From Dehalococcoidia bacterium (lineage in GTDB: Bacteria > Chloroflexota > Dehalococcoidia > JACVQG01 > JAZFUS01), in assembly GCA_036447315.1 (NCBI GenBank), contig JAZFUS010000348.1:1-33749 (forward strand): a DNA stretch of 33,749 bases, written 5' to 3'. A model generated the notes under the pieces. That model had not been told where the DNA came from. It ran no database searches and saw only the letters and a list, made by a program, of their open reading frames with translations. Shown piece by piece: positions 1,175-14,840 of this stretch; position 1 is the first letter of the stretch, and every line of letters starts with the position of its first letter. The position numbers and the translations under genes are program-made.

Positions 1175-1290
1175 CCAGAAAGCCCCAGGAAGCAGCCCCT
1201 GGAAATAAACGCAAATAGGCCTTGCACAATCCAGCGGGTGGGTGTAGATTATGGGTGTCATGAGGCAGCACACAACCACCACGGAGTCCA
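1175..1290 (+). promoter_or_regulatory. promoter+leader repeat, copy 1
   Basis: A-tract AAATAAACGCAAATAGGCC is followed by -35 TTGCAC 1222-1227, a 17-nt spacer and -10 TAGATT 1245-1250. The invariant TGTCATGAGGCAG lies at 1256-1268, then a CA-rich leader and SD GGAG 1283-1286. The unit aligns with the four other copies. Confidence 0.7.
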
Positions 1291-1292
1291 AA

Positions 1293-1532
1293 GTGACCAA
1301 CGCCCAAATGAAAGCCCTGATCAACGTGGCCGACCTGGCAGTCCGGAACATGCCCTCCTGCACGTCCGCCAAGGGCTGCACCCTGAACGGCACCACCGTC
1401 CGGTCCAGCACCGCCGAATGTCTACAGCGCCAGGGCCTGGTGGTCCTGTCCAACCGGGAAGGCACCGACCTGCGGGACGTGGTCCTGACGTTCAACGGCT
1501 GGGACGCGGTCTGCACCGAGCGGGGATGGTAA
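1293..1532 (+). CDS. hypothetical small protein (cargo of repeat copy 1)
   Basis: GTG 1293 lies 6 nt after SD GGAG. In-frame alternative starts are ATG 1260 (leader AUG), ATG 1251 and ATG 1308. Stop is TAA 1530-1532. Confidence 0.65.
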   Translation: MTNAQMKALINVADLAVRNMPSCTSAKGCTLNGTTVRSSTAECLQRQGLVVLSNREGTDLRDVVLTFNGWDAVCTERGW

Positions 1533-1669
1533 TGACCAAGGCGGAACGGCTGACCCGTGCCATAGACCGGATCCTGGACGACCGCTACAACCGGCGGACA
1601 GACGACCGGGACGTCTGGCTGGACGACGAGGCCTACCAGAAAGCCCCGGAACCCAGCCCCTCAAAATAA
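1532..1669 (+). CDS. hypothetical 45-aa protein
   Basis: ATG 1532 overlaps the preceding stop (TAATG). The peptide is MTKAERLTRAIDRILDDRYNRRTDDRDVWLDDEAYQKAPEPSPSK. Its last codons are encoded by the 5' part of repeat copy 2, so it may be spurious. Confidence 0.4.
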   Translation: MTKAERLTRAIDRILDDRYNRRTDDRDVWLDDEAYQKAPEPSPSK

Positions 1670-1753
1670 ACGCAAGAAGCCCTTGCACAATCCAAGGGTC
1701 CGGTGTATATTCTAGGTGTCATGAGGCAGTCAACAACAACCCCGGAGGAAAGC
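1636..1753 (+). promoter_or_regulatory. promoter+leader repeat, copy 2
   Basis: -35 TTGCAC 1683-1688, 17-nt spacer, -10 TATATT 1706-1711. Invariant TGTCATGAGGCAG follows, with its ATG at 1721. SD GGAGGA lies at 1744-1749 ahead of ATG 1754. Confidence 0.7.
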
Positions 1754-2218
1754 ATGAACACGACAACCGACCTGAACATCGAGCCCGGCGACACCCTGCT
1801 GGTGACGTTCGGCCAGGGCACCCAGCTGTTCCGCGTGACCGAGGTCAGCGGCAGGGGCAAGCCCTGGGGATTCCGCTGGAACGCAAGCCGGGGCAGCTGG
1901 CAGCCTTCCAGCCTGGGAGCCAACGACCGGCGCGTAGTCCGGAACTGTGGCAAGTGCGACGGGTTCCCCCAGGAGACCGTCAGCGGCGCGAACCCCACCA
2001 AGGCCCTCCCGGCCTGGATCCGGATCCAGACCGTCACCGCCCAGGAGCTGCGGACCCCGACCAGCTGCTGCCACCCCACCGTCACCACCGTCAGCCAGCA
2101 GGCCTGGCCCCTGGACCAGCTGTCCGGAGTGACCGCGACGGTGGCCCGCATGAACAAGCTGGAGGACAAGACCTGGAAGGCAGGACGCAAGGCCCACAGC
2201 CTGGTGGTGGGCGACTAG
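1754..2218 (+). CDS. hypothetical protein (154 aa, cargo of repeat copy 2)
   Basis: ATG 1754 lies 4 nt after GGAGGA. The in-frame leader AUG is at 1721. Stop is TAG 2216-2218, followed by a GC hairpin. Confidence 0.7.
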   Translation: MNTTTDLNIEPGDTLLVTFGQGTQLFRVTEVSGRGKPWGFRWNASRGSWQPSSLGANDRRVVRNCGKCDGFPQETVSGANPTKALPAWIRIQTVTAQELRTPTSCCHPTVTTVSQQAWPLDQLSGVTATVARMNKLEDKTWKAGRKAHSLVVGD

Positions 2219-2242
2219 CCCGACCTGGCAGCCTGGAACCTG

Positions 2243-2264
2243 GGGGGCCCCATCGGGGGCCCCT
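2243..2264 (+). terminator. GC-only stem-loop (GGGGCCCC / GGGGCCCC)
   Basis: GGGGCCCC 2244-2251 pairs with GGGGCCCC 2256-2263. It lies between the stop at 2218 and repeat copy 3. The following sequence is TCTTGCGTT, which is only weakly T-rich. Confidence 0.4.
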
Positions 2265-2272
2265 CTTGCGTT

Positions 2273-2389
2273 AAAGCCCCAGGAAACAGCCCCTTAAAAT
2301 AAACGCAAAAAGCCCTTGCACTATCAGGCCAGGGGGTGTAGATTATGGGTGTCATGAGGCAGCAAACAAACAACCACCCGGAGGACGAC
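2273..2389 (+). promoter_or_regulatory. promoter+leader repeat, copy 3
   Basis: -35 TTGCAC 2316-2321, 17-nt spacer, -10 TAGATT 2339-2344. The invariant 13-mer follows, with its ATG at 2354. SD GGAGGA lies at 2380-2385 ahead of ATG 2390. Confidence 0.7.
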
Positions 2390-3157
2390 ATGAAAAAGGG
2401 AAACATCGACTGGAACGCCGTGGCCGAGAAAGCCCAGGCCATGACCATCTGCCAGCTGACCGGAGCCATCCAGGACATCCGGGCCACCCTGCAGGACGCC
2501 GACGACCTGGACCGCACCGACGAGGGCGACCGGGGTGGCTACTACCGGGACGAGGCCAGCATCTACCATGCAGAGATCGCCCGGCGGGAGGCCGCCGGGG
2601 ACGTGATCGACTCCGACGAGCTGGTCCGGATCGAGGCCATGCGGGACTGCGACCAGGTGGACCGCCACCTGACGGCCATGTTCCAGCGTGGCAGCAGGGC
2701 CGACGAGCTGACCACCAGGCTGTCAGCGTTCAATTCCTTCCGGGAGCTGATCGAGGAGACACACAGCGGATACCGTCCCACCCTGAAGGGGACCGGGGAC
2801 AGCGTCGAGCTGGCCAACCTGTACGACTTCGCCATGGAGCTGCGGGGCGACAGCCGCCGGGCCTTCCGGGGCATCCAGGTCCAGGACAGCCACCAGGGGA
2901 AGGTGACCGCCGAGGACGTGGACTTCGTGATCGAGCAGGCCAAGACCGCCGAGGTCTGCACCTACAGCCCGAGCCTGGAGGACCTGGGGGTCCAGACCCC
3001 GGACGAGCTGATGGAGCAGGTCAGGACCGACATCGCGGACGCCGAGGGGCACCACGTTGACATCCTGGAGCTGGCCGAGAAGATCCTGGCGGCTGACACC
3101 CCCCAGGCGGCGGCCATCCTGGCCGGGCAGATCGCGGCCCTGGTCATGAACGACTGA
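2390..3157 (+). CDS. hypothetical acidic protein (255 aa, cargo of repeat copy 3)
   Basis: ATG 2390 lies 4 nt after GGAGGA. The protein is visibly D/E-rich throughout. Stop is TGA 3155-3157, followed by a GC hairpin. Confidence 0.75.
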   Translation: MKKGNIDWNAVAEKAQAMTICQLTGAIQDIRATLQDADDLDRTDEGDRGGYYRDEASIYHAEIARREAAGDVIDSDELVRIEAMRDCDQVDRHLTAMFQRGSRADELTTRLSAFNSFRELIEETHSGYRPTLKGTGDSVELANLYDFAMELRGDSRRAFRGIQVQDSHQGKVTAEDVDFVIEQAKTAEVCTYSPSLEDLGVQTPDELMEQVRTDIADAEGHHVDILELAEKILAADTPQAAAILAGQIAALVMND

Positions 3158-3166
3158 CACCCTGAC

Positions 3167-3190
3167 GGGGGGCCGGGCAGCTGGCCCCCC
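3167..3190 (+). terminator. GC-only stem-loop (GGGGGGCC / GGCCCCCC)
   Basis: GGGGGGCC 3167-3174 pairs with GGCCCCCC 3183-3190 around an 8-nt loop. It lies between the stop at 3157 and repeat copy 4. Confidence 0.4.
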
Positions 3191-3200
3191 TTCCTGCCCC

Positions 3201-3317
3201 CAGAATCCCCATGAAACAACCCCCTGAAAATAAACGCAAAAAGCCCTTGCACAATCCACGGGTCTGGTGTAGATTATGGGTGTCATGAGGCAGTCAACAA
3301 CAACCCCGGAGAAAAAC
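3201..3317 (+). promoter_or_regulatory. promoter+leader repeat, copy 4
   Basis: -35 TTGCAC 3247-3252, 17-nt spacer, -10 TAGATT 3270-3275. The invariant 13-mer follows, with its ATG at 3285. SD GGAG lies at 3308-3311 ahead of ATG 3318. Confidence 0.7.
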
Positions 3318-3713
3318 ATGAACACCGCCACCCCCGCCACCATCACCGAGATCACCAACGACTTCGTGACCGTCACCACCGAGGACGGCAAGGCCTACAA
3401 CCTGAACCACTACAACCTGCCCGGCCACCTGATCGACAACGGTGTCGGCACCCCGGTCACCCTGATCCAGGAGCCCGTGGCCCCCGGGTCCTACGGCATC
3501 ACCACCTGGGCCGAGTCCGCCAACTTCACCCTGGCCATGGACCACGCCGCCATGGTCAAGGCCATCAACGCAGCCCCCGGATACACCGCCGAGGAGTGCC
3601 GGGCCATCGAGAACGGGGCCGACTTTGACGACGACGGGAACGTGGTCGAGGCGCAGCTGGAGCGGGTGGTCGAGGACGGTGTCTGCTACCTGCGCCCCAA
3701 GGTGTCGGCATGA
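3318..3713 (+). CDS. hypothetical acidic protein (131 aa, cargo of repeat copy 4)
   Basis: ATG 3318 follows the SD. The in-frame leader AUG is at 3285. The stop overlaps the next start (ATGA 3710-3713). Confidence 0.75.
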   Translation: MNTATPATITEITNDFVTVTTEDGKAYNLNHYNLPGHLIDNGVGTPVTLIQEPVAPGSYGITTWAESANFTLAMDHAAMVKAINAAPGYTAEECRAIENGADFDDDGNVVEAQLERVVEDGVCYLRPKVSA

Positions 3714-3817
3714 CAGCGGCGGAAGCCAAGGCCTGGCGGGCCGTCTGGGAGAGCCTGCAGCCTGCCAGCGTGAAGTGGCTGCGGGCCTGCCGGTTCACCC
3801 CCACGGTGAAGTCATGA
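3710..3817 (+). CDS. hypothetical 35-aa protein
   Basis: It is not in the ORF track because it is under 60 aa. ATG 3710 and stop TGA 3815-3817 both lie in ATGA overlaps with neighbours. The peptide is MTAAEAKAWRAVWESLQPASVKWLRACRFTPTVKS and third positions are G/C-rich. Confidence 0.45.
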   Translation: MTAAEAKAWRAVWESLQPASVKWLRACRFTPTVKS

Positions 3818-4095
3818 CCGACCGGCGGCAAGCAGCCCGGCGGGCGGACCCCCTGGGGTGCCCCGGCCAGGACCGGCGGGTCGAGATCGAGCAGCGTCAG
3901 GCCGAGCGGCGGGACGTGGCCAGCCCCAAGCGTGGCCTGCTGATCCAGGCCAAGCGTCGGATGGCCCCGGCCCTGTGGGAGGACCTGGTCCAGTCCATGA
4001 GGTCCGAGGGCCAGGAGCTGACCGACCAGGACATCGACGGCATGGCCAAGGCCATGGCCGGGGACGAGCTGACCACCGAGGACCTGGGACTATGA
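3814..4095 (+). CDS. hypothetical protein (93 aa)
   Basis: ATG 3814 lies in an ATGA overlap. This is the C-terminal part of track ORF 3625-4095 (MTDRRQAARRADPLG...DELTTEDLGL). Stop is TGA 4093-4095. Confidence 0.65.
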   Translation: MTDRRQAARRADPLGCPGQDRRVEIEQRQAERRDVASPKRGLLIQAKRRMAPALWEDLVQSMRSEGQELTDQDIDGMAKAMAGDELTTEDLGL

Positions 4096-4312
4096 AGAAT
4101 CGCCACCCCCTTCGGGCCGTATCCTTCGGGCAGCGTGTTCCTGCCCGGCCTGACCGGCGAAGCCAGACCGAGCGGTCCTGGCCCAGGGGTGGCGGGGGTA
4201 TCCATCATCGGGACCGTGTAGCAGGACACCGGTGGCCGGGGCACCGTCAGGGGGCTGTATGAAGCCCGCCACCCCGGCACCTTCCAACGTCACCAAAATG
4301 GAGGACGAGGAC

Positions 4313-4948
4313 ATGACAGTCGGACAATCAATCCAGAGCTATCTACGCCGGATGGCCACCAAGGCCAGGCGGGGAGAGATCAAGGACGACCGGCAGCAGG
4401 TCCGGTGGGCCATCGGGTTCCGGGAACACCTGGGCAAGAAGTGGCGGGGCCGTCCCGTCGAGGACCTGGTGACCAGCCCCGAGGGCCACAAGCTGCTGGA
4501 GGGCTGGGTATTCCGGGACCGGCCCAAGCTGCACGGGGTGCCCCCGACCATCCAGACCGTCTGCGTCGAGAACGGCAAGCTGCGGGAGTGCTTCCAGCTG
4601 CCCGACCTGACCCTGGACTGGCAGCAGAAGGGCCGACCGTCCGACCCCCGGCCCAGGGTCATGGCCCTGTCCGAGCTGCTGCCCGGCAGCACCGGAGGCA
4701 AGGAGGTCGAGACCGTGGCCGGTTCCAACGGCACGGGGGTGGAGGACAATCGGAAGTTCTACCGGCGGAAGGGCGACCAGCCCGAGCTGCCCCTGGAGCG
4801 GCCCATCGACGTGGCCATCCTGGCCCTGTCCGAGCTGACCGCAGCTGTGGCCGGGTTCGCGGAGAACGTCCACCGGGTGGCTGGGTCCCTGCAGGACCAG
4901 GCCAAGATGGTCCAGGAACGCCTGGACCGGGAGCGGGGTGTCAGGTGA
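4313..4948 (+). CDS. hypothetical protein (about 211 aa)
   Basis: GGAGGA 4300-4305 lies 7 nt before ATG 4313. In-frame alternative starts are GTG 4232, ATG 4259 (after GGGGG) and ATG 4298. Codon bias is good and the stop overlaps the next start (GTGA). Confidence 0.75.
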   Translation: MTVGQSIQSYLRRMATKARRGEIKDDRQQVRWAIGFREHLGKKWRGRPVEDLVTSPEGHKLLEGWVFRDRPKLHGVPPTIQTVCVENGKLRECFQLPDLTLDWQQKGRPSDPRPRVMALSELLPGSTGGKEVETVAGSNGTGVEDNRKFYRRKGDQPELPLERPIDVAILALSELTAAVAGFAENVHRVAGSLQDQAKMVQERLDRERGVR

Positions 4949-5418
4949 CCGGACCAGGACGACCGTCCGAGACCATCAAGACCACCGAGGGGTTCCGGCG
5001 GCAGAGGATCAGGGAGGGCCTGCGGGTGACCGTGACAGCGGTGGCCCGCAGGCTGGGGATCCTGCCGTCCAGGGTCAGCCGGTGGGAGCATGGGATCCAC
5101 GCCCCCAGGGGTGACATGGGCGAGAAGTGGGACGCCGTCCTGGCCGACCTGACCCACGAGAAGCGGGACACCACTGCCAGGATCAAGGCCGAGCTGATCG
5201 ACCCCGAGACCCCGGCTGTGGCCATGGCCCGGATCCGGTCAGCCCTGGGCGTCAGTGCCCTGTCCATGTCCAGGATCATGGGGATCGACCATACGACCCT
5301 GTGGAGGTGGGAGACCGGCAGATACATCCCGGAGAACATCGACGCCTGGCGGGCAGCCCTGCTGGTGGTCTGCCTGGGCATCAGGCGGACGGCCATCAGA
5401 CACGGGGGTGTCCAGTGA
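4945..5418 (+). CDS. tandem helix-turn-helix (XRE-like) DNA-binding protein
   Basis: GTG 4945 lies in a GTGA overlap. Two XRE-type HTH signatures are present: LRVTVTAVARRLGILPSRVSRWEHG and LGVSALSMSRIMGIDHTTLWRWETGRYIP. The N-terminal part of track ORF 4405-5418 is low-complexity and overlaps the previous gene. Confidence 0.75.
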   Translation: MTGPGRPSETIKTTEGFRRQRIREGLRVTVTAVARRLGILPSRVSRWEHGIHAPRGDMGEKWDAVLADLTHEKRDTTARIKAELIDPETPAVAMARIRSALGVSALSMSRIMGIDHTTLWRWETGRYIPENIDAWRAALLVVCLGIRRTAIRHGGVQ

Positions 5419-6317
5419 TGGTCATGGACCAGGTGGACCCGGCTGACGTGGACGACGCCATCGAGGCCCTGGCCAACCGGCTGGGCCTGGACGAGGCCAA
5501 GGTGGTCAGACAGTTCAGGGTCTGGATGCACGGACCACCCAAGGCCACCGGCCTGGAGACCAGCCTGGAGGCCGACACCATCCTGCCCCTGCTGGGCAAG
5601 ATCCAGGGGGAGCTGGGCCCGGTGGCCAAGTCCGGGGAGGACACGTTCCTGCACCGGACCTACGCCACCATCGGGGACGTCATGGCCGTGGTGGGCCCGG
5701 TCCTGTTCAACCACGAGGCCACCCTGATCCAGGAGCCGGAATTCCTGGGGACCGTCAGGGTGGGGCGGCCCTTCAAGAAGGGGACCGGCCACGAGATCCT
5801 GGAGGTGGACCTGGCCCGCTACGCCATGAGGACCAGGCTGTGGAAGGCCGGGCAGTGGGTGGGCAATACCTTCGTGGCGGACTGCGAGTCCACCGAGCCC
5901 AAGGCCGTGGGGTCCCTGGACACCTACCTGCGCCGCTACGGGATCGTGACCCTGTTCCTGCTGGTGACAGCGGACGACGACGGGGAGGCAGCGGGGCGGG
6001 AGCCAGCCAAACCCAAGCAGCGGCCCAGGGCCCGGACTGGTGCCAGGACCGAGCCAGCGGCTGCGGCTGCGGTGCGGGCAGGCACCGGGAAGTTCTCCGA
6101 CCACCAGGTCGAGGACGGCCTGAAGCGGGCCCAGGATGCCCTCTGGGACAGGCTGGTCAAGGCAGCGGACGGGGACGAGAACGTGGCCAAGGACATCCTG
6201 GTGGACGTCAGCAGGGACGCCCAGGGGCTGGGAGTCCGGAGCGTCTACCAGCTGCGGGACGACCAAGCCATCGACCGGGCCAGCCAGGCCCTGGAGGGTT
6301 CGAAATGGAGCGGCTGA
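5418..6317 (+). CDS. erf: ERF-family single-strand annealing protein
   Basis: ATG 5418 lies in a TGATG overlap. KSGEDTFLHRTYATIGDVMAVVGPVL and GSLDTYLRRYGIVTLF resemble the P22 Erf motifs (KYKYRSCEDILEGVKPLL, SSYARKYCLNGLFGI). The C-terminal tail is acidic and disordered-looking. Confidence 0.8.
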   Translation: MVMDQVDPADVDDAIEALANRLGLDEAKVVRQFRVWMHGPPKATGLETSLEADTILPLLGKIQGELGPVAKSGEDTFLHRTYATIGDVMAVVGPVLFNHEATLIQEPEFLGTVRVGRPFKKGTGHEILEVDLARYAMRTRLWKAGQWVGNTFVADCESTEPKAVGSLDTYLRRYGIVTLFLLVTADDDGEAAGREPAKPKQRPRARTGARTEPAAAAAVRAGTGKFSDHQVEDGLKRAQDALWDRLVKAADGDENVAKDILVDVSRDAQGLGVRSVYQLRDDQAIDRASQALEGSKWSG

Positions 6318-6478
6318 ACTACACCGAGAACACCCTGCGGATGGCCATGAACCTGGCCAGGGGGCAGGGCGCGGACGCAGGATACCGGCAGGGCGTCAGG
6401 GCTGGCCTGCTGTGGGCCCTGGCGGCAGTGGCCACCTGTGGGGCCACCGTGGGCCTGCTGACCTGGTGGGCCAGCTGA
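6305..6478 (+). CDS. small membrane protein (57 aa)
   Basis: GGAGGG lies 6 nt before ATG 6305, and the gene overlaps erf by 13 nt. The C-terminus is hydrophobic (LLWALAAVATCGATVGLLTWW). Confidence 0.5.
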   Translation: MERLNYTENTLRMAMNLARGQGADAGYRQGVRAGLLWALAAVATCGATVGLLTWWAS

Positions 6479-7266
6479 TGGGCAGACCATCCAGCGGCTA
6501 CTACCGGGAGGGGGACAAGCGGACCCCCAGGAACAGGAAGGCATCCGTGACCACCGTCCTGAAGCTGTGGGGCGACAAGGGCGGCCTGCTCTACTGGGCC
6601 AACGAGCAGGGCCTGGAGGGAAAGAACCTGCAGGAGGCCAGGGAGACCACCGGGGTCCACGCCGGGAACCAGGCCCACGCCTGGGTCGAGGCCGACCTGA
6701 ACGGCCAGCCCGGGGCCATGGTCACGACCATGTCCGACAACCTATCCGACGAGGACCTGGTGGCAGCCAGGGCGGGGTTCCAGGCATACGAGGACTGGAA
6801 GGCAGGCCTGCGGGGGTTCCGTGCCCTGGAGACCGAGCTGCCCCTGGTCCACCCCACCCTGGACTACGGCGGGACCCTGGACTGCGTGGCGGCCATCATG
6901 CGGCCCCCAAGGACAGGGGACCAGACGCCCAGGCAGACCACCAGCAGGGGCATGGGGGCCAGGCCATGGGCAGACCAGCAGGTCCTGATCCTGGCGGACT
7001 GGAAGCTGACCGGCGGGACCTACGCGGAACACGTCTATCAGGGGGCGGCCTACCTGAACCTGTACGAGGCCACCCACCCAGGGGAGCGGATCGAGGAATT
7101 CCACGCCCTCCGGTTCGGCAAGCCCACCAAGGACGGGCTGTCCAAGGGCGGGGACTTCCATCACCACCGTTTCACCAGGGCCCAGATGGACGTGGCATTC
7201 GAGGCCTTTGTACATATCCTGGAGGCCTACAAAATCAACAAGTCCGTCGAGCGGTGGGTCCGGTGA
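6478..7266 (+). CDS. PD-(D/E)XK (RecB/Cas4-like) nuclease, recombination partner of ERF
   Basis: ATG 6478 lies in a TGATG overlap. Motifs in order are GVHAGNQAHAWVE, GTLDCVA (D), LILADWKLTG (DxK) and QGAAYLNLY (QxxxY). Confidence 0.75.
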   Translation: MGRPSSGYYREGDKRTPRNRKASVTTVLKLWGDKGGLLYWANEQGLEGKNLQEARETTGVHAGNQAHAWVEADLNGQPGAMVTTMSDNLSDEDLVAARAGFQAYEDWKAGLRGFRALETELPLVHPTLDYGGTLDCVAAIMRPPRTGDQTPRQTTSRGMGARPWADQQVLILADWKLTGGTYAEHVYQGAAYLNLYEATHPGERIEEFHALRFGKPTKDGLSKGGDFHHHRFTRAQMDVAFEAFVHILEAYKINKSVERWVR

Positions 7267-8912: not shown

Positions 8913-9355
8913 CAGCCATCGACCCCTGGACCGAGGCCTGCGGCAGGCTGTGCAAGCGGATCCGGAAGCGGGGCTACCTGCCCGCCGTGAAGCTGGAGCT
9001 GGAGGACCCGAGCTGCCAGGAGGCCGGGCTGATGGTCCCCTGGTCCGCCATGATCAGCAACCTGCTGGCCCCGGAAGGGGAGCCCGCCGTCCCCCTGGTG
9101 TTCCCGGACATGGAGCCCAGGACGTTCGCCTGTGGCCGGTGCCAGGACCAGCTGTACCTGCTGCGGGAGGTGGACGGGGTGGTGTATTCCAGGAAGTGCC
9201 ACCCCTGCCTGGCCTGGGACCGGATCTACATCGAGGCCGAGCGGAAGGGCGGCAAGACCATCAGGGGGTCCATCAGCGAGGACCAGGACCCCACGACCGA
9301 CCGGGCCCCCAGGACCATGCCCCGGCTGGGGATGTTCTCCGACGAGGGGAGCTGA
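8909..9355 (+). CDS. hypothetical Cys-containing protein (148 aa)
   Basis: ATG 8909 lies in an ATGA overlap. It carries CxxC-like pairs (CGRLC, CGRC, CHPC). The stop overlaps the next start (TGATG). Confidence 0.7.
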   Translation: MTAIDPWTEACGRLCKRIRKRGYLPAVKLELEDPSCQEAGLMVPWSAMISNLLAPEGEPAVPLVFPDMEPRTFACGRCQDQLYLLREVDGVVYSRKCHPCLAWDRIYIEAERKGGKTIRGSISEDQDPTTDRAPRTMPRLGMFSDEGS

Positions 9356-10200
9356 TGCGGACGTTCTGCCCAGAGTGCGGGCCCATGGTCTCGGTGGACG
9401 AGGACGGATGCTGCGCCCACTGCGGAAATGGAGCCGCTGGGGAAGCGGTGGAGCGTATGTTCAGGGACCGGGACCAGCTGCGGGAGGTCCGGTCAGCGGC
9501 GGCCAAGTACCAGGCGGACCCGGTCAACCTGGACGACCGTCCAGAGTCCTGGGGGCTGCTGGCGGACCTGCTGGACATCATCGAGGAGGGGTCAGACCAT
9601 GGACGACCGGACCCTGCCGGTGGTGACCGAGCAGAGCATCAGGAACGCGGGGAAGGCAGCCAAGGCCGGGGCGGCCAGGCGGACACCGTGGAAACATCCG
9701 AGCCTGCCCAGCGCCAGGATCGAGATCCTGCTGGCCAGGATGGACGAGACCAACCGGGAGGTGCAGGACCTGCTCCGACGACTGGCCAGGTCACCATAGT
9801 CCTGGACCTGCCGTGCCCGGACAGGCGGCTGAACCCCAACACGGCCCGGCGGATCCACAGGCGGTCAATCGCCAGGATAGAGGCAGCCAGCAGGTCAGCG
9901 GTGGGCTGGGCGGCAGCGGCCTGGACCATGCAGCACAGGAAGCCCAGGCTGCTGAACGCCCTGGTCCAGTGTACGATATACGCGAAGAACCCCAGTTTTG
10001 TGATGGACGGCGACAACGCCCTGGCCCTGTCCAAGACCATGTTCGACGGGATGGCAGACGCCGGGATTTTTACCACCGACAGGAAGCTGGTCCACTGGCC
10101 AGTCCTGCAGCCGGTGGACAAGGCAAAAGCTGGCCGGGTCAGGGTGATCATCAAACCCATGGCCGACAGCTGGACGCCGATTCTGATGGAGGGAGCGTAA
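9355..10200 (+). CDS. rusA: continuous ORF: N-terminal zinc ribbon, odd linker, C-terminal RusA-family Holliday junction resolvase domain
   Basis: ATG 9355 opens a zinc ribbon (CPEC...CAHC). The frame has no stop until TAA 10198-10200. From about 9796 it encodes IVLDLPCPDRRLNPNTARRIH...MDGDNALALSKTMFDGMADAGIFTTDRKLV, which matches the RusA D-x-D-N-xx-K...D...DD pattern. Codons 9600-9790 in this frame have poor G/C third-position bias. Confidence 0.6.
   Translation: MRTFCPECGPMVSVDEDGCCAHCGNGAAGEAVERMFRDRDQLREVRSAAAKYQADPVNLDDRPESWGLLADLLDIIEEGSDHGRPDPAGGDRAEHQERGEGSQGRGGQADTVETSEPAQRQDRDPAGQDGRDQPGGAGPAPTTGQVTIVLDLPCPDRRLNPNTARRIHRRSIARIEAASRSAVGWAAAAWTMQHRKPRLLNALVQCTIYAKNPSFVMDGDNALALSKTMFDGMADAGIFTTDRKLVHWPVLQPVDKAKAGRVRVIIKPMADSWTPILMEGA
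9599..9799 (+). CDS. hypothetical basic protein (66 aa) overlapping the 9355-10200 ORF in another frame
   Basis: ATG 9599 runs to TAG 9797-9799 (MDDRTLPVVTEQSIRNAGKAAKAGAARRTPWKH...REVQDLLRRLARSP). G/C third-position bias is strong here, unlike the overlapping frame. Confidence 0.5.
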   Translation: MDDRTLPVVTEQSIRNAGKAAKAGAARRTPWKHPSLPSARIEILLARMDETNREVQDLLRRLARSP

Positions 10201-10547
10201 TGCCCCAGAAATCACTGAAGGGGTGCAGCCGTCCAGGCTGCCCCGAGCTGACCAGGGGCCGGTTCTGCAAGCCCCACGAGGAGGTCTATCAGCAGACCAG
10301 GGACCAGGGCCGACCGACAGCTGCGTCCAGGGGCTACGGCTCCAGGTGGCAGCAGATCCGGAAGGTGGTCCTGCGGGAGGAGCCGTTCTGCCGGTCCTGT
10401 TCTGCACCGTCCACCGAGGTGGACCACATCAAACCCATGTCCAAGGGCGGGGACAATTCCAGGGGCAACCTGCAGGGCCTGTGCAAGAGGTGCCACAGCA
10501 GCAAGACCGGAAGCGTGGACGGCGGATTCGGGAACGTGGCGTCGTGA
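10200..10547 (+). CDS. HNH endonuclease (terminase-associated type)
   Basis: ATG 10200 lies in a TAATG overlap. Motifs are CRSC...VDHIKPMSKGGDNSRGNLQGLCKRCHSSKT (HNH with flanking CxxC pairs). It lies just upstream of terS, as in HK97-like phages. Confidence 0.85.
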   Translation: MPQKSLKGCSRPGCPELTRGRFCKPHEEVYQQTRDQGRPTAASRGYGSRWQQIRKVVLREEPFCRSCSAPSTEVDHIKPMSKGGDNSRGNLQGLCKRCHSSKTGSVDGGFGNVAS

Positions 10548-10756: not shown

Positions 10757-10979
10757 ATTTGCCGACTACAGCCAGCCCTGCAGATCCTGCCAGGCTGTTC
10801 CATCTGTCAACCTGGGCGGCCTTTGCGTCCACTGCGTGGAGACCATCATGGAGTATCACAACCAGCACCTGATCGAGACCCTGGACCGGCTGATCGGCGG
10901 GGTCAAGATTGTCCTGGCCCTTCTGGCTGTCAACCTGGCCCTGTCCGGTGCCCTGGTGGTGGCCTGGCTGGTGGCCTGA
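10743..10979 (+). CDS. small membrane protein with N-terminal CxxC pairs (78 aa)
   Basis: GGAG lies 4 nt before ATG 10743. It carries CRSC...CVHC followed by a C-terminal hydrophobic helix (IVLALLAVNLALSGALVVAWLVA). Confidence 0.65.
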   Translation: MPKPEFADYSQPCRSCQAVPSVNLGGLCVHCVETIMEYHNQHLIETLDRLIGGVKIVLALLAVNLALSGALVVAWLVA

Positions 10980-11470
10980 TGGGCCTACCAGGAAGGCCAC
11001 CCAAGCCCAGGGAGCTGCGGGCCCTGGCCGGGAACGCCGGGCACAGGTCCATGGACGAGGACCCACCCAAGCCCAAGGCCGGGCGACCACCCAAGCCCGA
11101 GCTGGTCGAGGACGACCCGGTGGCCAGCCAGGAATGGGACCGGGTGATCCCCCTGATCGAGGCCATGCGGATCCTGGGCGAGGAGGACGGGACAGCCCTG
11201 GCGGCCTACTGCATCCTGTACAGCAGGTGGACCCAGGCGGAGAAGCAGGTCCAGACCAGCGGCATCACCATCACCGTGGTCACCGGGACGGGGGTCCGGG
11301 TGGTCAAGAATCCAGCGGTCACCATCGCGGAAAAAGCCCTATCCCAGCTGGCCGGATTCATCGCGGAGTTCGGCCTGTCACCGCAGGCCAGGAGCCGGAT
11401 CAACGTCAAGAAAGCGGGCAAGGCCGGGCAGGGCAAGGTCGCCCTGTTCCCGGGCAAGCCAGCAAATTAG
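10979..11470 (+). CDS. terS: terminase small subunit, P27 family
   Basis: ATG 10979 lies in a TGATG overlap. GRPPKPRELRALAGN...W...AAYCILYSRW...VKNPAVTIAEKALSQLAGFIAEFGLSPQARSRI matches the P27-family pattern. Confidence 0.9.
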   Translation: MGLPGRPPKPRELRALAGNAGHRSMDEDPPKPKAGRPPKPELVEDDPVASQEWDRVIPLIEAMRILGEEDGTALAAYCILYSRWTQAEKQVQTSGITITVVTGTGVRVVKNPAVTIAEKALSQLAGFIAEFGLSPQARSRINVKKAGKAGQGKVALFPGKPAN

Positions 11471-11481
11471 GAGGTACGAGT

Positions 11482-11985
11482 ATGCCGAGCAAAACGAGAT
11501 TTCACGCCTGGGCCGGGGCTGCCCTGGTCACCCTGTCAGCCATGGCCACCGTCAGCCTGGTGGTGGCAGGACTGTCACTATGGGCGGAGGGACCGGACGC
11601 CTGGTTCGACGCCCCCCGGGACGTCCTGACCTTCCACGAGGAAATGGAAATAGCCCGGCCCACCCTGCTGGAGAACAGCGGGCAGATCATCGGGATCTGG
11701 AAGGGGCCCGGACTCTCCTGGGACGTCCACAGGTGGGAGCCCACCGACGCCACCAAGCGGCGGGCCCCTGGGAACCAGGCCTGGCCGGTGGTCCCAGCAG
11801 GGGCCTGTGACAGCCTGCAGGAGTGCGAGGACGAAATGGACGACGCCTGCACCGACGCGGGCCACGGTGGCGTGGACACGGCCACCGTCCAGCTGGTCCA
11901 ACATGCCAACGGGTCCGTGACCTGCTCCGGGGACTGCAATCTGCACGGGGCCATCGCGTTCCAGATATGCGGGCCGGTTTCCTGA
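11482..11985 (+). CDS. N-terminally anchored or secreted Cys-rich hypothetical protein (167 aa)
   Basis: Strong SD AGGAGG lies before ATG 11482. The N-terminal hydrophobic segment is AGAALVTLSAMATVSLVVAGLSLW. Several Cys occur in the C-terminal half. Confidence 0.7.
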   Translation: MPSKTRFHAWAGAALVTLSAMATVSLVVAGLSLWAEGPDAWFDAPRDVLTFHEEMEIARPTLLENSGQIIGIWKGPGLSWDVHRWEPTDATKRRAPGNQAWPVVPAGACDSLQECEDEMDDACTDAGHGGVDTATVQLVQHANGSVTCSGDCNLHGAIAFQICGPVS

Positions 11986-12170: not shown

Positions 12171-12211
12171 AGCCCAAGCCCGTGGTCCTGTGGCCAGGTG
12201 TCAGGATCTAC

Positions 12212-12631
12212 ATGGAGGCCAGGATCGAGCGCCAGGAGTCCACGGGCTGCTGGCTGTGGACCGGGGGCGTCACCACAGGAGGGTATTCCGTGTCCTGTGG
12301 TGGGCTGGCCATCCAGTTAGCCCACCGGGTCATGTACGCGATTTTACTGGGGGACACCGAGCTGCGCCTGGTTCACCTGTGCGGTGTCTCGCTGTGCGTG
12401 AACCCCGACCACATGGAGGCGGTCACGATGGGGGAGATTATAAAACGTGGGCAGACCCCGCCAGCCAGGCACAGCAGAAAGACCTGGTGCAACAACGGCC
12501 ACGAGTTCACAGAGGACAATACCCGTAGAATCAAGGGGCACAGGGTCTGCAAGCGGTGCAAACTGGACCAGAGCAGGACGCCCAAGACCAAAGCCAGGCA
12601 AGCGGCTTACAGGCTGTCCCGCCGGGGGTAG
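12212..12631 (+). CDS. HNH homing-type endonuclease (HNH_3-like)
   Basis: The pattern is GCWLWTGGVTTGGY...LAHRVMY...VHLCGVSLCVNPDHMEAVT. ATG 12212 is my preferred start and GTG 12182 is the alternative. Local patches of lower GC occur. It lies between terS and terL. Confidence 0.8.
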   Translation: MEARIERQESTGCWLWTGGVTTGGYSVSCGGLAIQLAHRVMYAILLGDTELRLVHLCGVSLCVNPDHMEAVTMGEIIKRGQTPPARHSRKTWCNNGHEFTEDNTRRIKGHRVCKRCKLDQSRTPKTKARQAAYRLSRRG

Positions 12632-12636
12632 CGGCT

Positions 12637-14352
12637 GTGGTCAGCAAGGCAAAAACAAAGACAGTCCGGGCCACCAGGAAGTCCAAAAGTAGACACCCCA
12701 ACCCGGCCATCAGATACCACCGGGATGTCCTGAACGGGCTGGTGGTGGTGGGGGACCTGGTCCGCCTGGCCGTCGAGCGGCACGAGCGGGACCTGCGGGA
12801 CGGGCACAAGCGGGGCCTGCGGTTCTCCGAGCCCCTGGCCCAACATGCCCAGGACTTCTACCAGGTCTGCAGGCACAGCAAGGGGGAATGGGCCGGGCAG
12901 CCGTTCTCCCCGGCACCGTGGCAGGCCTGGATCGACTGGGTCCTGTTCGGGTGGGTGGTGGCAGAGAGCGGCATCCGGCGGTTCAGCACCGGGTTCGTGA
13001 CCGTGGCCCGCAAGAACGGGAAATCCACCGACGCGGCCAAGAAGGGCCTGTATCTGATGGGCCCGGACGGGGAGCCTGGGGCCGAGATATACACCGCAGC
13101 CACCAAGCGGGACCAGGCCAGGATTGTCCACAGCGAGGCCACCAGGATGGTCCAGGCCAGCCCCGAGCTGTCCAGCGTCATCGACGTCTGGAAGGACAAC
13201 CTGTCCATCCCCAGCATGGCCTGCAAGTACGAGCCCCTGGGGAAGGACGCCGACACCCACGACGGGCTGAACCCCCACGCCGTGATCATGGACGAGCTTC
13301 ACGCCCACAAGACCAGGGACCAGTACGACGTCCTGCGGACAGGGATGGGGGCCCGGCGGCAGCCCCTGATGTACATCATCACCACGGCAGGGGCGAACAG
13401 GACCAGCATCTGCTACGAGCTGGACAACTACAGCCAGCAGGTGGTCCGGGGGGTCCTTCAGGACGACAGCTGGTTCTGCTACCTGGCCAGGCCCGACGAG
13501 GGCGACGACTGGCGGGACATGGCCACCTGGAAAAAGGGCAACCCCAACCTGGGGGTGTCCGTGAAGCTGCGGAACCTGAAGCGGGACTTCAGGGAGGCCA
13601 CCGAGTCCCTGGCCTGCCAGAACACATTTCGACGCCTGCGCCTGAACGAATGGACCCAGCAGGTGGACCGGGTGATCGACATGGACAAGTGGGCGGCCTG
13701 CAGCGGGAAGCCCGAGATCCCCGACAACGCGGTCTGCTTCCTGGGGCTGGACCTGTCAGCCAAGATCGACCTGACGGCAGGGGTCTGCCTGCATGTTGAC
13801 GACGACGGGCTGATCCACGTCGAGGTCCAGTTCTGGATGCCCGAGGAGTCAGTGATCAGCAAGACCAGGCGGGACCGGGTGCCCTACGACGTCTGGGTCC
13901 GGGAGGGCTACATCACGGCCACCCCGGGGAACGTGGTGGACCAGGAGTCCGTCAGGATCTGGGTCAACGGGCGGAAGGCTGCGGGGCGGTACATCGAGCA
14001 GGTGGCGTATGACCCGTGGAACGCCACCAAGCTGGCCGTCGAGCTGCAGGACGTGGACGGGCACGTCACCGTCGAGGTCCGCCAGGGCTACAAGTCCATG
14101 TCCGAGCCCACCAAAACCCTGATCGGGGCAGTCCTGGACAAGCGGATCCGGCACGGGGGCAACCCAGTCCTGTCCTGGATGGCCGACAACTTCGAAGTCA
14201 GGCGGGACGAGAACGACAACATGGCCCCCAGGAAGGGGTCCGAGGTCTCGCGCATCGACGGCATGGTGGCCCTGATCATGGCCCTGGGGCGGGCCGAGCT
14301 GCACGAAGGACCCAGCCCATACGAGTCCAGGGGCCTGCTGTCCATCGGCTGA
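12637..14352 (+). CDS. terL: terminase large subunit (Terminase_1-like)
   Basis: Walker A-like VARKNGKST is followed by ...IMDELHAH... (Walker B-like) and a C-terminal nuclease region. GTG 12637 follows the HNH stop. ATG 12556 is an alternative but overlaps HNH by 76 nt. Stop is TGA 14350-14352. Confidence 0.9.
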   Translation: MVSKAKTKTVRATRKSKSRHPNPAIRYHRDVLNGLVVVGDLVRLAVERHERDLRDGHKRGLRFSEPLAQHAQDFYQVCRHSKGEWAGQPFSPAPWQAWIDWVLFGWVVAESGIRRFSTGFVTVARKNGKSTDAAKKGLYLMGPDGEPGAEIYTAATKRDQARIVHSEATRMVQASPELSSVIDVWKDNLSIPSMACKYEPLGKDADTHDGLNPHAVIMDELHAHKTRDQYDVLRTGMGARRQPLMYIITTAGANRTSICYELDNYSQQVVRGVLQDDSWFCYLARPDEGDDWRDMATWKKGNPNLGVSVKLRNLKRDFREATESLACQNTFRRLRLNEWTQQVDRVIDMDKWAACSGKPEIPDNAVCFLGLDLSAKIDLTAGVCLHVDDDGLIHVEVQFWMPEESVISKTRRDRVPYDVWVREGYITATPGNVVDQESVRIWVNGRKAAGRYIEQVAYDPWNATKLAVELQDVDGHVTVEVRQGYKSMSEPTKTLIGAVLDKRIRHGGNPVLSWMADNFEVRRDENDNMAPRKGSEVSRIDGMVALIMALGRAELHEGPSPYESRGLLSIG

Positions 14353-14446
14353 AAATAAAACGCAAAAAGGACTTGCGCTATCCTGCCGAGGGGGGTATAT
14401 TAGAGCTGTCATGAGGCAGCAAACAACAACCCCGGAGGACAGGAAC
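14351..14446 (+). promoter_or_regulatory. promoter+leader repeat, copy 5
   Basis: AAAATAAAACGCAAAAAGG is followed by -35 TTGCGC 14373-14378, a 17-nt spacer and -10 TATATT 14396-14401. TGTCATGAGGCAG follows, with its ATG at 14411. SD GGAGGA lies at 14434-14439 ahead of ATG 14447. Confidence 0.65.
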
Positions 14447-14806
14447 ATGACCCGACTTGAAATGATCGCTCGCATCGACTTCCTGGTGGCCCGCGAGGAT
14501 AATCCCAGCGAGGGCATGGTCGCTTCCATGAGCCGCGAAGCAGACGCCGAGGAGTGCCTGGCCCTGGAGGAGGACGTGGACCGCCTGGACGCCGAGCAGG
14601 CGGAAGTGGCCCACGAGGCGGAAATGATCGACCTGGCCGACAATTACCCCACCCTGGACGACGTCGAGGGGAAGCTGCAGGACGCCGTTCGACCCCAGCC
14701 CGGGACGTTCGCGGACACGGCCCGCCTGATGGTCCAGCTGGGCGTAATGACCGGCGACGAGGCCGACACCTGGAAGGACGACATGAAGGACGGCCTGCTG
14801 TTCTAA
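14447..14806 (+). CDS. hypothetical highly acidic protein (119 aa, cargo of repeat copy 5)
   Basis: ATG 14447 lies 7 nt after GGAGGA. My hand count gives about 31 D/E against 10 K/R. Stop is TAA 14804-14806, followed by a GC hairpin. Confidence 0.75.
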   Translation: MTRLEMIARIDFLVAREDNPSEGMVASMSREADAEECLALEEDVDRLDAEQAEVAHEAEMIDLADNYPTLDDVEGKLQDAVRPQPGTFADTARLMVQLGVMTGDEADTWKDDMKDGLLF

Positions 14807-14813
14807 TCCACCA

Positions 14814-14836
14814 GGGGCCCCAACATCTGGGGCCCC
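14814..14836 (+). terminator. GC-only stem-loop (GGGGCCCC / GGGGCCCC)
   Basis: GGGGCCCC 14814-14821 pairs with GGGGCCCC 14829-14836 around a 7-nt loop. It lies 4 nt upstream of the annotated portal ATG. Confidence 0.4.
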
Positions 14837-14840
14837 CAAG

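Follow-up and report, generated by a model that had tools for sequence, protein, structure and literature searches.

Repeated promoter-like units with an invariant 13-mer head small gene cassettes in an uncultured high-GC siphovirus

Promoter-early stem-loop (PeSL) regulatory cassettes have been described in T4-type phages (Arbiol et al. 2010, PMC2839356; Comeau et al. 2014, PMC4122927). Each consists of an AT-rich region with an upstream stop codon, a sigma-70 promoter, a stem-loop, a Shine-Dalgarno (SD) sequence and a start codon (PMC2839356). They stand before ORFans in a variable region, with a few copies in virion modules beside genes whose function is unknown, and their GC-rich stem-loops, often polyG/polyC, terminate upstream transcription (PMC2839356). 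There are about 50 copies, for which promoter activity, terminator activity and mini-circles were demonstrated experimentally, and the motifs bound differences between close relatives (PMC2839356, PMC4122927).

Two other systems involve short asymmetric sites. The SAS of cluster K mycobacteriophages (consensus GGGATAGGAGCCC, 13 bp, with up to 2 mismatches; PMC3203893, PMC12699233) are placed 3-7 bp from the start codon and include the SD sequence (PMC3203893). ESAS are imperfect 17-bp inverted repeats upstream of SAS, with a lineage-specific consensus (PMC3203893, PMC12699233), and the function of SAS was still unknown in 2025 (PMC12699233). The operators and stoperators of cluster A mycobacteriophages are asymmetric sites of 13-14 bp with one orientation relative to transcription; the stoperators, of which there are tens, are spread across both genome arms, also away from promoters, and co-vary with repressor immunity type (PMC9283540, PMC6550527). 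They provide a precedent for an asymmetric 13-14-bp site recognised by a monomeric protein that has two DNA-binding domains (PMC9283540).

The locus analysed here lies in a 33,749-nt stretch of DNA (hereafter the window) from an uncultured high-GC (65%) HK97-type siphovirus with a genome of about 34-39 kb, whose virion module comprises Terminase_4, a portal, an S78 protease and Phage_capsid. No GenBank phage matched it at the nucleotide level, and its TerL is at most 41.5% identical to that of any GenBank phage. Genome contigs scanned with TerL and the capsid protein contained no close prophage, a tRNA scan gave no pointer to a host, and no integrase, repressor or immunity module was seen. The window holds a repeated unit that we read, with a probability of about 0.6, as a portable, self-contained head of early gene cassettes, made of a promoter and a 5'UTR with an invariant box at +1, and closest to PeSL. 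PeSL, which the first-pass annotation did not name, is a closer precedent than the cluster K SAS: its published features match point for point except for the box, with the stem-loop at some units only.

Copies and anatomy of the unit

A search with nhmmer and an HMM of the copies recovered, at the positions given by a first-pass annotation, five units of about 120 nt (E 7e-32 to 2e-36), with exactly five matches in the window and no weaker ones; a repeat search likewise returned a single five-member family, of 133 nt. The 13-mer TGTCATGAGGCAG, which the annotation had found identical in the five copies by hand alignment, was confirmed by exact scan at 1256, 1717, 2350, 3281 and 14407, always on the + strand, against a chance expectation of about 0.001 in 2 x 33.7 kb. 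With up to 2 mismatches allowed, there were still exactly five sites in 33.7 kb, all inside units. The pattern TTGCRY-N17-TANATT matched only the five units (0.15 expected), and matches to AAACGCAANNAGNNCTTGC were confined to the same five positions. A computed alignment (MAFFT) agreed with the manual one: similarity extends from about -90 to 2-3 codons inside the gene and then ends sharply, which indicates that the flanks are unrelated.

The phage has at least six copies, not five. The sixth (c0), which is truncated, lies just outside the window at the start of the source contig (positions 1-60 of L085, a near-identical record of this contig with 4 mismatches in 11 kb, the window running from L085 position 253 onwards). 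This copy, inside which the contig starts, is probably the reason why the assembly broke at that point. Seven further copies were found in relatives, which are metagenomic phages: R1-R3 in L086, S1 in L089 and again in L096, S2 in L095 and S3 in L099, the last three records being metagenome contigs. The metagenome pattern scan yielded 3 true contigs of 11 matched, and exact-pattern scans of IMG/VR and GTDB genomes for the box or the promoter gave only chance single matches, as judged by nhmmer and inspection. Copies within one genome share their descent, which leaves about three lineages as the effective sample.

The anatomy is fixed in all copies: A-tracts at two UP-element positions, a -35 box TTGCRY, 17 nt, a -10 box TA[GT]ATT, 5 nt, the 13-mer, a tract of A and C only, GGAG, and a start codon 4-7 nt after the SD sequence. 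The units of the window, all on the + strand, are as follows.

1175-1295, +: unit c1, with the upstream block at 1183-1202 and A-tracts plus inverted repeat at 1204-1227
1222-1250, +: predicted c1 promoter, -35 TTGCAC at 1222-1227, 17-nt spacer, -10 TAGATT at 1245-1250
1256-1293, +: c1 leader, 13-mer at 1256-1268, A/C tract, GGAG at 1283-1286, GTG at 1293
1636-1756, +: unit c2, -35 at 1683-1688, -10 TATATT at 1706-1711, 13-mer at 1717-1729
1744-1754, +: c2 ribosome site, GGAGGA at 1744-1749, ATG at 1754
2269-2392, +: unit c3, -35 at 2316-2321, -10 TAGATT at 2339-2344, 13-mer at 2350-2362
2380-2390, +: c3 ribosome site after an A/C tract with a 3-nt insertion, GGAGGA at 2380-2385, ATG at 2390
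3200-3320, +: unit c4, -35 at 3247-3252, -10 TAGATT at 3270-3275, 13-mer at 3281-3293
3309-3318, +: c4 ribosome site, GGAGAA at 3309-3314, ATG at 3318
14353-14449, +: unit c5, beginning at the A-tract right after the TerL stop codon, without the far-upstream block
14373-14419, +: predicted c5 promoter and start of leader, -35 TTGCGC at 14373-14378, -10 TATATT at 14396-14401, 13-mer at 14407-14419
14434-14447, +: c5 ribosome site, GGAGGA at 14434-14439, ATG at 14447

Two details of the first-pass description needed correction. The GGAGGA that it gave for all units is present in c2, c3 and c5, while c1 has GGAGTC and c4 GGAGAA; and the upstream AGCCCCAGGAAnCAGCCCCT block ascribed to copies 1-4 is degenerate in c4. 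The gene behind c1 probably starts at GTG 1293.

Like PeSL, the unit is a repeated intergenic composite motif with a sigma-70-like promoter (TTGCRY-17-TA[GT]ATT five times, in units only). An AT-rich tract upstream of the -35 box holds or abuts the upstream stop codon, the TAA of gene 1532-1669 falling within the c2 A-tract and the TGA of TerL abutting that of c5; in this 65% GC genome, the units rank with the most AT-rich 40-mers. The motif also ends in the SD sequence and start codon of an ORFan, and is found in a variable array region, with c5 between TerL and portal. In contrast with PeSL, the phage is an HK97-type siphovirus of 65% GC and not a T4-like myovirus, has about 6 copies instead of about 50, carries a stem-loop at some units only, and possesses, at the predicted +1, an invariant 13-mer for which the PeSL papers describe no counterpart (PMC2839356, PMC4122927). 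Moreover, activity was established by experiment for PeSL; here it is predicted from the sequence.

Predicted promoter elements and their conservation

The arrangement suggests that the unit would be a strong promoter for RNA polymerase with the host housekeeping sigma factor. Its sigma-70-type anatomy, proposed earlier, is supported by sequence and by comparison (hexamers and fixed spacing), and the A-tracts, AAAATAAA and AAAAA at -57..-48 and -44..-40, correspond to the two UP-element subsites. The hexamers match TTGACA/TATAAT only moderately, at 7-9 of 12 positions, and a generic promoter scan flagged c2 alone. If sigma-70-type recognition is assumed, geometry would place the transcription start seven bases after the -10 box, at a G (T at -1, G at +1) which is the second base of the 13-mer. 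The cassette mRNA would then begin with 5'-GUCAUGAGGCAG, followed by the A/C-only tract, which cannot pair with itself and would lead to a GGAG(G) SD sequence 4-7 nt before the start codon. Expression would presumably be early.

Between the three phage lineages, identity was 0.98 for the 13-mer, 0.79 for the -35 box, 0.70 for the upstream 20 nt, 0.69 for the -10 box, 0.64 for the A/C tract and 0.42 for the spacer. The spacer is thus exactly 17 nt with variable sequence, as first described, and the transcribed part of the unit, chiefly the 13-mer, is better kept across the lineages than the hexamers, in line with the conserved leader reported from the window. Neighbouring orthologous proteins are only 37-56% identical between the same lineages, which indicates that the box is under a constraint of its own. 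The 13-mer lies 5 nt past the -10 box in 12 of 12 copies, while its distance to GGAG is 14, 17 or 26 nt; being fixed to the -10 box and not to the SD sequence, it belongs to the promoter or the +1 region and not to the ribosome site. A positional homologue in L086 (R4, 9011-9080) keeps the upstream element, the -35 box, the 17 nt and the -10 box without having the 13-mer, showing that box and promoter are separable.

Other candidate control elements fared less well. An inverted repeat, ACGCAA-N7-TTGCGT, overlaps the -35 box; all four L086 promoters have it in perfect form, the window has imperfect versions, and the S lineage has lost it. With 4-6 bp only, it is shorter than ESAS. A palindromic operator over the -35 box was weakened as an explanation, because the S lineage lacks the left half-site and still keeps the A-tracts. 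An ECF-type promoter acting through the GGAAAC of the far-upstream block was rejected, its register being inconsistent between c2 and c3 and the motif being absent from the S lineage. Promoters for a phage-encoded RNA polymerase were rejected as well, as no such polymerase gene was found; an 821-aa early ORF of L086 had no informative match.

Cassette genes, hairpins and the insertion after TerL

The units are followed by small genes, none of which matched Pfam or PHROG; all are ORFans, and an exact look-up of the c5 protein returned no record. These genes, the hairpins near them and two neighbouring genes are listed here.

1293-1669, +: cassette 1, two small ORFans at 1293-1532 (79 aa) and 1532-1669 (45 aa)
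1754-2218, +: cassette 2 gene, 154 aa, ORFan
2242-2263, +: GC-rich terminator-like hairpin GGGGGGCCCC-atcg-GGGGCCCC, then TCTT, ending cassette 2 directly upstream of c3
2390-3157, +: cassette 3 gene, 255 aa, acidic, pI 4.5, ORFan
3167-3190, +: GC-rich terminator-like hairpin GGGGGGCCGG-gcag-CTGGCCCCCC, then TTCCT, ending cassette 3 directly upstream of c4
3318-3713, +: first gene of cassette 4, 131 aa, pI 4.2, ORFan
4945-5418, +: protein with two HTH_3/HTH_31 repeats, 51-56% identical in both other lineages
5415-6317, +: ERF-family single-strand annealing protein
14447-14806, +: cassette 5 gene, 119 aa, pI 4.1, ORFan
14814-14836, +: hairpin GGGGCCCC-aacatct-GGGGCCCC, after the c5 gene

The order and presence of the cassette genes differ among relatives, to which the flanking genes 708-1172 and 4259-6317 are common, and the differing cassettes appear to be bounded by units, as the first-pass annotation had anticipated. 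Homologous genes follow units in different phages: the cassette 2 homologue of L086 (7871-8290) stands behind a different unit (R3) at another place in the gene order, the cassette 3 gene has partial homologues behind R2 (L086) and S1 (L089), and the first gene of cassette 4 has a 68%-identical homologue behind S2 on the metagenome contig L095. At 37-56% amino acid identity, the relatives are too diverged for the junctions to be mapped at the base level. c3, c4, R2 and S2 each have a GC hairpin with a C/T tail directly in front, and one also follows the c0 gene; overall, a hairpin is directly upstream of 4 of 11 complete units, with none before c1, c2 or c5. The units, several of them with such a hairpin just upstream, would thus serve as portable heads of small accessory ORFan genes. 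Their homology over about 120 nt would permit duplication, swapping and insertion of cassettes, as in the PeSL cassettes of T4-type phages, and the ERF annealase, whose gene is present as previously noted, may be an agent of recombination between the repeated units.

In the late region, an insertion of about 458 nt, made up of c5 and its gene, separates TerL from portal; it is absent from L081, L083 and L084, where the gap measures 42-107 nt against about 490 nt here with the unit and the gene. The insertion begins exactly at the unit; with a unit at one boundary only, it did not arise by plain exchange of one unit for another. Between TerL and portal, L081 has a related CCCCAACAT..TGGGG sequence, so that the hairpin at 14814-14836 is probably ancestral and outside the insertion.

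Morons of lambdoid phages, reportedly described by Juhala et al. in 2000, are a further point of comparison. As with these, a promoter-led gene has been inserted between late genes that are adjacent in relatives. Unlike these, the c5 promoter is one more member of the early promoter family that the phage itself carries, the base composition is not deviant (GC of 0.634 for 14001-15000, within the genome range), the downstream hairpin is seemingly ancestral, and signs of lysogeny were not seen in this phage.

Candidate roles of the 13-mer

The resemblance to cluster K SAS put forward in the first-pass annotation proved to be conceptual only. Both are 13-nt asymmetric repeats in a single orientation, located in a non-structural region before unrelated genes and conserved across sub-lineages. 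The inverted repeat over the -35 box, which varies with lineage and is absent from the S lineage, may be a counterpart of the repeat upstream of SAS. Yet, the sequences differ (GGGATAGGAGCCC versus TGTCATGAGGCAG), as do position and SD content: the 13-mer is fixed to the -10 box, its ATG precedes the gene start by 33-46 nt, and the SD sequence is a distinct GGAG(G) 4-7 nt before that start, whereas not every SAS is part of a promoter. The unit was accordingly rejected as a cluster K SAS. With cluster A stoperators it shares an asymmetric 13-mer in one orientation and a two-HTH protein encoded in the window, but here the sites number 5-6, all at promoters, with a sequence identical across lineages, and the integrase/immunity module is not seen. 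A literature search with the motif string gave only two matches, both to unrelated human sequences.

We favour the view that the 13-mer is a '+1 box', a shared DNA control site at the start point, through which a conserved factor would switch all early cassettes together; a second control layer, as postulated in the first-pass annotation, may thus exist. The protein at 4945-5418, in which the two HTH domains predicted earlier are indeed present, might be this factor; it is a candidate only, without a link to the units or the box, and co-variation between its recognition helices and the DNA elements gave no usable signal with three sequences. Against an operator, a partner protein that has diverged to about 50% identity need not leave the box invariant at 13 of 13 positions, and this invariance may fit a host partner (ribosome, RNase or RNA polymerase) at least as well.

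The same argument would suit a box acting in RNA. With the promoter unchanged, the box would be the extreme 5' end of each cassette mRNA (GUCAUGAGGCAG, with an SD-like GAGG) and bind a host component, for instance an RNase, an RNA-binding protein or a 30S subunit, for which it would be a standby site or 5' stabiliser, the box and the unstructured A/C tract together conferring uniformly high stability and translation. It does lie downstream of the predicted +1, it is the sole G/U-containing part of an otherwise A/C-only leader, and c0, c2, S1 and S3 have a whole 33-nt leader that is identical between two lineages although their promoters differ. However, no RNA structure is conserved: a box hairpin reaches at most 3-4 bp (about -1.6 kcal/mol), the leaders of c1-c5 are less structured than shuffles (z +1.3 to +2.4; of 200 shuffles, 189-200 fold as well or better), the leader matches no Rfam family at E<=1, and UCAUG/CAUGA pairing between box and start codon was weak and not significant. 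In addition, the distance to the SD sequence is variable, the R1 leader after the box is quite different and structured, and GAGG is a weak SD core. We consider a role in RNA to be credible, if on the unlikely side. It is improbable that the ATG of the box is a real leaderless or near-leaderless start, from which the proteins would gain the N-terminal sequence MRQxTxT(P/T)E or which would be one of two starts, the A/C tract being a CA-rich downstream enhancer. This ATG would be at +4 of the transcript and is in frame with the annotated start, without stop codons, in 11 of 12 copies (33 or 36 nt), two independent indels being multiples of 3. Yet a T-free tract makes stop codons impossible, and with about three independent indel events, 2 of 3 would be in frame by chance in 26% of cases. 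The A of this ATG is the 10th base after the -10 box in 12 of 12 copies, where the 7th is usual; a strong, well-spaced SD sequence precedes the annotated ATG in every copy; and variation in the tract has no third-position pattern. In R1 (L086 2640-2761), the ATG is 46 nt from the start, out of frame, and opens a 19-codon ORF. An N-terminal extension was rejected as the main explanation because of R1 and the absence of codon periodicity.

That the units are not promoters at all, but recombination or mobility sites (attC-like junctions, homing targets) or antisense terminators with an incidental likeness to promoters, appears very improbable. Cassettes are shuffled and one is inserted, the combinations of -10, tract and post-SD types vary among copies in a way that suggests crossovers within units, the inverted repeat and T-run of the minus strand read as a terminator in c2 and c5, and HNH and ERF genes are present. 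Nevertheless, the 17-nt spacing, the A-tracts at UP positions and the fixed orientation are needs of a promoter and not of a recombination site, as are the SD sequence and start codon that end every unit and the terminator-like hairpins that precede some of them. The inverted repeat has just 4-6 bp and is absent from the S lineage, no recombinase gene was seen, and there are no minus-strand genes.

A wider extension of the +1-box reading is possible, though we advance it tentatively: the 13-mer would be an undescribed start-of-transcript control box that a whole clade of uncultured high-GC siphoviruses has in common, the factor reading it being conserved and coming from host or phage. With the lineage-specific upstream elements, it would form a two-part code like SAS/ESAS, but at +1, and with the units, PeSL-type mobile promoter cassettes would be known for the first time outside T4-like phages, bringing early anti-host genes even into the late operon. 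If the cassette reading itself is right, mobile cassettes of this kind are not restricted to AT-rich T4-like myoviruses but extend to a high-GC siphovirus lineage unrelated to them, which would suggest a general way for phages to gain, shuffle and at once express small accessory genes. The +1 box, with 13 nt, sharp edges, the same sequence despite half-diverged proteins, and absence from one homologous promoter, would offer a compact, testable handle on coordinated early-gene control. With an HMM of the unit, metagenomic relatives could be searched for early cassettes and for candidate anti-defence genes. In practice, units break assemblies, as in the contig that starts inside one, and lead gene callers astray: for one gene, the called start was an ATG overlapping the end of the -10 box.

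Repeated units of predicted promoter and leader

The first-pass annotation had described a five-copy promoter and leader module with an identical 13-mer, and this was confirmed by an exact scan, a repeat search and a profile HMM. The 13-mer TGTCATGAGGCAG (referred to below as the box) gave five exact matches in the window, all on the + strand (1256, 1717, 2350, 3281 and 14407). Matches to TTGCRY-N17-TANATT, of which 0.15 would be expected by chance, were confined to the same five places, and the upstream AAACGCAANNAGNNCTTGC matched in the five units alone. The repeat search of the window returned a single five-member family of 133 nt, and the profile HMM built from the copies found exactly five matches (E 7e-32 to 2e-36) and none weaker. 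In a MAFFT alignment, the similarity began some 90 nt before the box, reached 2-3 codons into the gene and ended there. The repeated unit is thus real, and its reading as promoter plus leader was judged reasonable.

1175-1295, + strand, unit c1
1636-1756, + strand, unit c2
2269-2392, + strand, unit c3
3200-3320, + strand, unit c4
14353-14449, + strand, unit c5

A sixth, cut copy (c0) was found in L085, a near-identical record (GCA_044232495.1, JAZHBU014703287.1, 34,001 nt; 4 bases differing from the window in 11 kb), which starts 252 nt ahead of window position 1, inside a unit (L085 1-60). This copy reads GGTGGTG TAGATT ATGGG TGTCATGAGGCAG TCAACAACAACCCC GGAGGA CAGGAAC ATG; its gene is a 99-aa ORFan (L085 59-358), followed by a GC hairpin, GGGGGGCCCC/GGGGCCCCCC. 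The repeat probably caused the assembly break at the start of L085. Since the assembly seems to be broken inside the repeat, the phage genome would be incomplete (that of a relative has 39.5 kb) and more copies are possible. The gene call deposited for the first cassette gene (1251-1532) opens with ATG 1251, its A coinciding with the final base of the predicted -10 (TAGATT, 1245-1250). A start at GTG 1293, 6 nt past GGAG, is more likely, the prediction having been misled by the repeated unit.

GenBank phages gave no nucleotide match to the window, and in IMG/VR and GTDB genomes scans for exact patterns produced nothing beyond chance matches. A search with TerL led to an ENA scaffold of 39.5 kb whose matching protein is 91% identical; the early region of this scaffold (L086) carries box-bearing units. 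A third lineage, with units S1-S3, is represented by L089 and the metagenome contigs L095, L096 and L099. The relatives come from the Logan and ENA assemblies ERZ23498480, ERZ23486238, SDBT01 and SRR22808013.

L086 2640-2761, unit R1, with box
L086 4454-4578, unit R2, with box
L086 7581-7706, unit R3, with box

Behind R2 and R1 (4790-7255; 2755-4335), L086 encodes an 821-aa early protein and an AAA ATPase; the former matches nothing but PHROG 33218, a family without assigned function. The window has no homologue of either, and their counterparts in the window phage may lie in the unassembled part.

Anatomy of the unit and constraint on the box

In-register alignment gave the following elements, listed from upstream to downstream.

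Far-upstream block, CCCCAGGAAACAG, carried by c1-c4, R2, R3 and S1-S3
AAAATAAA, then CGCAAAAAG-nnC
-35, TTGC[AG][CT], then exactly 17 nt
-10, TA[GT]ATT in the window, TAAATT in the S lineage, CATAAT, CATGTT or TATGTT in the R lineage
Exactly 5 nt, then the box, TGTCATGAGGCA[G/A]
A/C-only tract, (C)GGAG(G), 4-7 nt, start codon

Taking the -10 hexamer as -12 to -7, A-tracts lie at -57 to -48 and -44 to -40, the positions of the distal and proximal UP-element subsites in E. coli. They may be such subsites, if the E. coli rule holds in the host of this phage. From the geometry, transcription is predicted to begin at the canonical place, seven bases past the -10, on the G of TGTCATG with a T before it. 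Few 40-mers of the window are as rich in AT as those of the units. Their promoter halves are uniform within one genome and different between genomes: ACGCAA..GCCCTTGCAC in the window, ACGCAAAAAGGTCTTGCGT (a perfect 6-N7-6 inverted repeat) in L086 and ACAGGAAAACCCCTTGCA in the S lineage. In all three, the box is identical.

Conservation of the blocks of the unit in the 12 box-bearing copies (block; information in bits per column; between-lineage identity)
13-mer; 1.97; 0.98
-35; 1.68; 0.79
Upstream 20 nt; 1.49; 0.70
-10; 1.46; 0.69
5-nt discriminator; 1.29; 0.64
A/C tract; 1.28; 0.64
Spacer; 0.81; 0.42

Since the orthologous early proteins adjoining the units are just 37-56% identical, the box, at 0.98, is the most constrained sequence in the region, with sharp edges. 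It lies 5 nt downstream of the -10 in 12/12 copies, whereas its distance to GGAG is 14 nt in ten copies, 17 nt in c3 and 26 nt in R1, which assigns it to the promoter or transcript start and not to the ribosome-binding site. The promoter frame can exist without it, as found in R4 (L086 9011-9080), which stands at the position of c1 and retains the upstream inverted repeat and a -35 spaced 17 nt from TATATT, while the box is missing. R4 can thus serve as a natural 'box-minus' control. GAGGCAG, a string of the box, recurs in GGAGGCAGATCATG at the end of its short leader.

Several readings of the invariant box, which sits where transcripts are predicted to start, were weighed. Our leading reading, to which we give a probability of about 0.35-0.4, is that it would be a DNA operator or a control site in the initially transcribed region. 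A role as an element of the 5' mRNA is somewhat less probable. An Rfam search of the units gave no match at E<=1, and the leaders of c1-c5, folded from the predicted +1, were less stable than dinucleotide shuffles (z +1.3 to +2.4), 189-200 of 200 shuffles folding at least as well. Such low stability is expected of an A/C-only tract and fits selection for an open SD. The sole hairpin possible within the box has 3-4 bp and about -1.6 kcal/mol; the leader of R1 is different and structured.

It is quite improbable that the ATG of the box is a leaderless start or begins an N-terminal extension. In 11/12 copies (33 or 36 nt) this ATG shares the frame of the annotated start and no stop intervenes, yet in R1 it is 46 nt from the gene start and out of frame. 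Its A is the 10th base after the -10, and every copy has its own SD. The T-free tract between box and start is unable to hold stop codons, its variation has no third-position pattern, and the copies stand for just about three independent indel events. The probability left over goes to a box without separate function. A control site at the level of DNA or of the initial transcript, our preferred reading, is like everything said here on transcription, timing and binding of the units inferred from sequence.

Cassette shuffling and comparison with known systems

In both L086 and L089, homologues of genes 161-1172 and 4259-6317 flank the array and keep their relative order; between these shared flanks, the gene content differs among the window, L086 and L089. 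The homologue of the c2 gene lies behind R3 in L086, upstream of the 412-1172 homologues; partial homologues of the c3 gene stand behind R2 and S1, and a homologue of the c4 gene stands behind S2. The c1 genes had no homologue in the relatives compared. Unit c5 and its 119-aa gene make up about 458 nt, beginning exactly at the A-tract past the TerL stop, and are missing from the TerL-portal gaps (42-107 nt) of the relatives L081, L083 and L084. GC hairpins with C/T tails stand directly ahead of c3 (2242-2263), c4 (3167-3190), R2 and S2, and also after the c0 gene. The types of -10, tract and post-SD sequence combine differently among copies, a pattern consistent with crossovers inside units.

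The closest described system is the PeSL (promoter-early stem-loop) cassette of T4-type phages, in which an AT-rich stretch containing the stop codon of the preceding gene leads into an early promoter of sigma-70-like type, a stem-loop terminator of polyG/polyC and an SD with start codon (PMC2839356). PeSLs are concentrated before ORFans in hyperplastic regions, with a few in virion modules beside unknown genes, and mediate modular shuffling (PMC2839356, PMC4122927). The present units match the AT-rich stretch, the sigma-70-like promoter, the closing SD with start codon and the placement. They differ in that their phages are unrelated to T4-type phages, that the stem-loop adjoins some units only, and that the PeSL papers contain no description of an invariant +1 box (PMC2839356, PMC4122927). 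We infer that the units are a portable, PeSL-like early promoter/5'UTR cassette in a clade of uncultured high-GC siphoviruses.

The first-pass annotation had also drawn a likeness to cluster K mycobacteriophages, in which the start-associated sequences take in the SD and stand 3-7 bp away from the start codon (PMC3203893); the function of these sequences and of their upstream inverted repeats is still open (PMC12699233). The concept is indeed shared, both systems combining an invariant 13-mer with a lineage-specific upstream repeat, but the likeness fails on sequence and position, the box being separated from the cluster K elements by its tie to the promoter or transcript start. In cluster A, a monomer with two DNA-binding domains reads an asymmetric 13-14-bp stoperator (PMC9283540); this is a precedent for a two-domain monomer, although stoperators do not match the present sites in number and distribution. 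The motif string was not found in the searchable literature.

Genome context

The window covers most of the genome of an HK97-type siphovirus, with all genes on the + strand, a GC content of 63-71%, and no integrase, tRNA or RNA polymerase gene seen in it. Its gene order is as follows.

Small ORFans
4945-5418, + strand, two-HTH protein
5415-6317, + strand, ERF
HNH
10979-11470, + strand, TerS
12637-14352, + strand, TerL
Portal, S78 protease, capsid, tail genes, M23 peptidase

None of the genes behind units had a Pfam or PHROG match. Three cassette proteins are strongly acidic, with pI 4.5 (2390-3157), 4.2 (3318-3713) and 4.1 (14447-14806), the last, encoded behind c5, having 31 D+E in 119 aa. 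Early anti-host and DNA-mimic proteins typically show such acidity.

Two HNH endonuclease genes (10200-10547 and 12182-12631) flank the TerS region, an HNH-terminase arrangement usual in cos-type HK97-like phages; the second, which adjoins TerL on its upstream side, scores only 18.7 bits against HNH_3, below the curated cut-off of 24.8. Ahead of gene 4259-4948, a gap of 164 nt (4095-4259), GC-rich and non-coding, is a candidate origin, promoter of the HTH-ERF operon, or RNA; its L086 counterpart (9537-9839) has 300 nt and a GGGGGGCTGCTGGAAGCCCCCC hairpin. The best sigma-70-like match of the window (10/12), TGGACA-16 nt-TATACT at 14842-14869, just ahead of the portal gene, may be a late-operon promoter; TGGACA and GGTATACT also occur, at a different spacing, in the TerL-portal gap of L081 (~11630-11662). 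At 65% GC, the coding strand has a strong and uniform surplus of A over T (AT skew +0.04 to +0.30 for all 1-kb windows) and AGG and CAG codons are frequent, features that may help to name the host.
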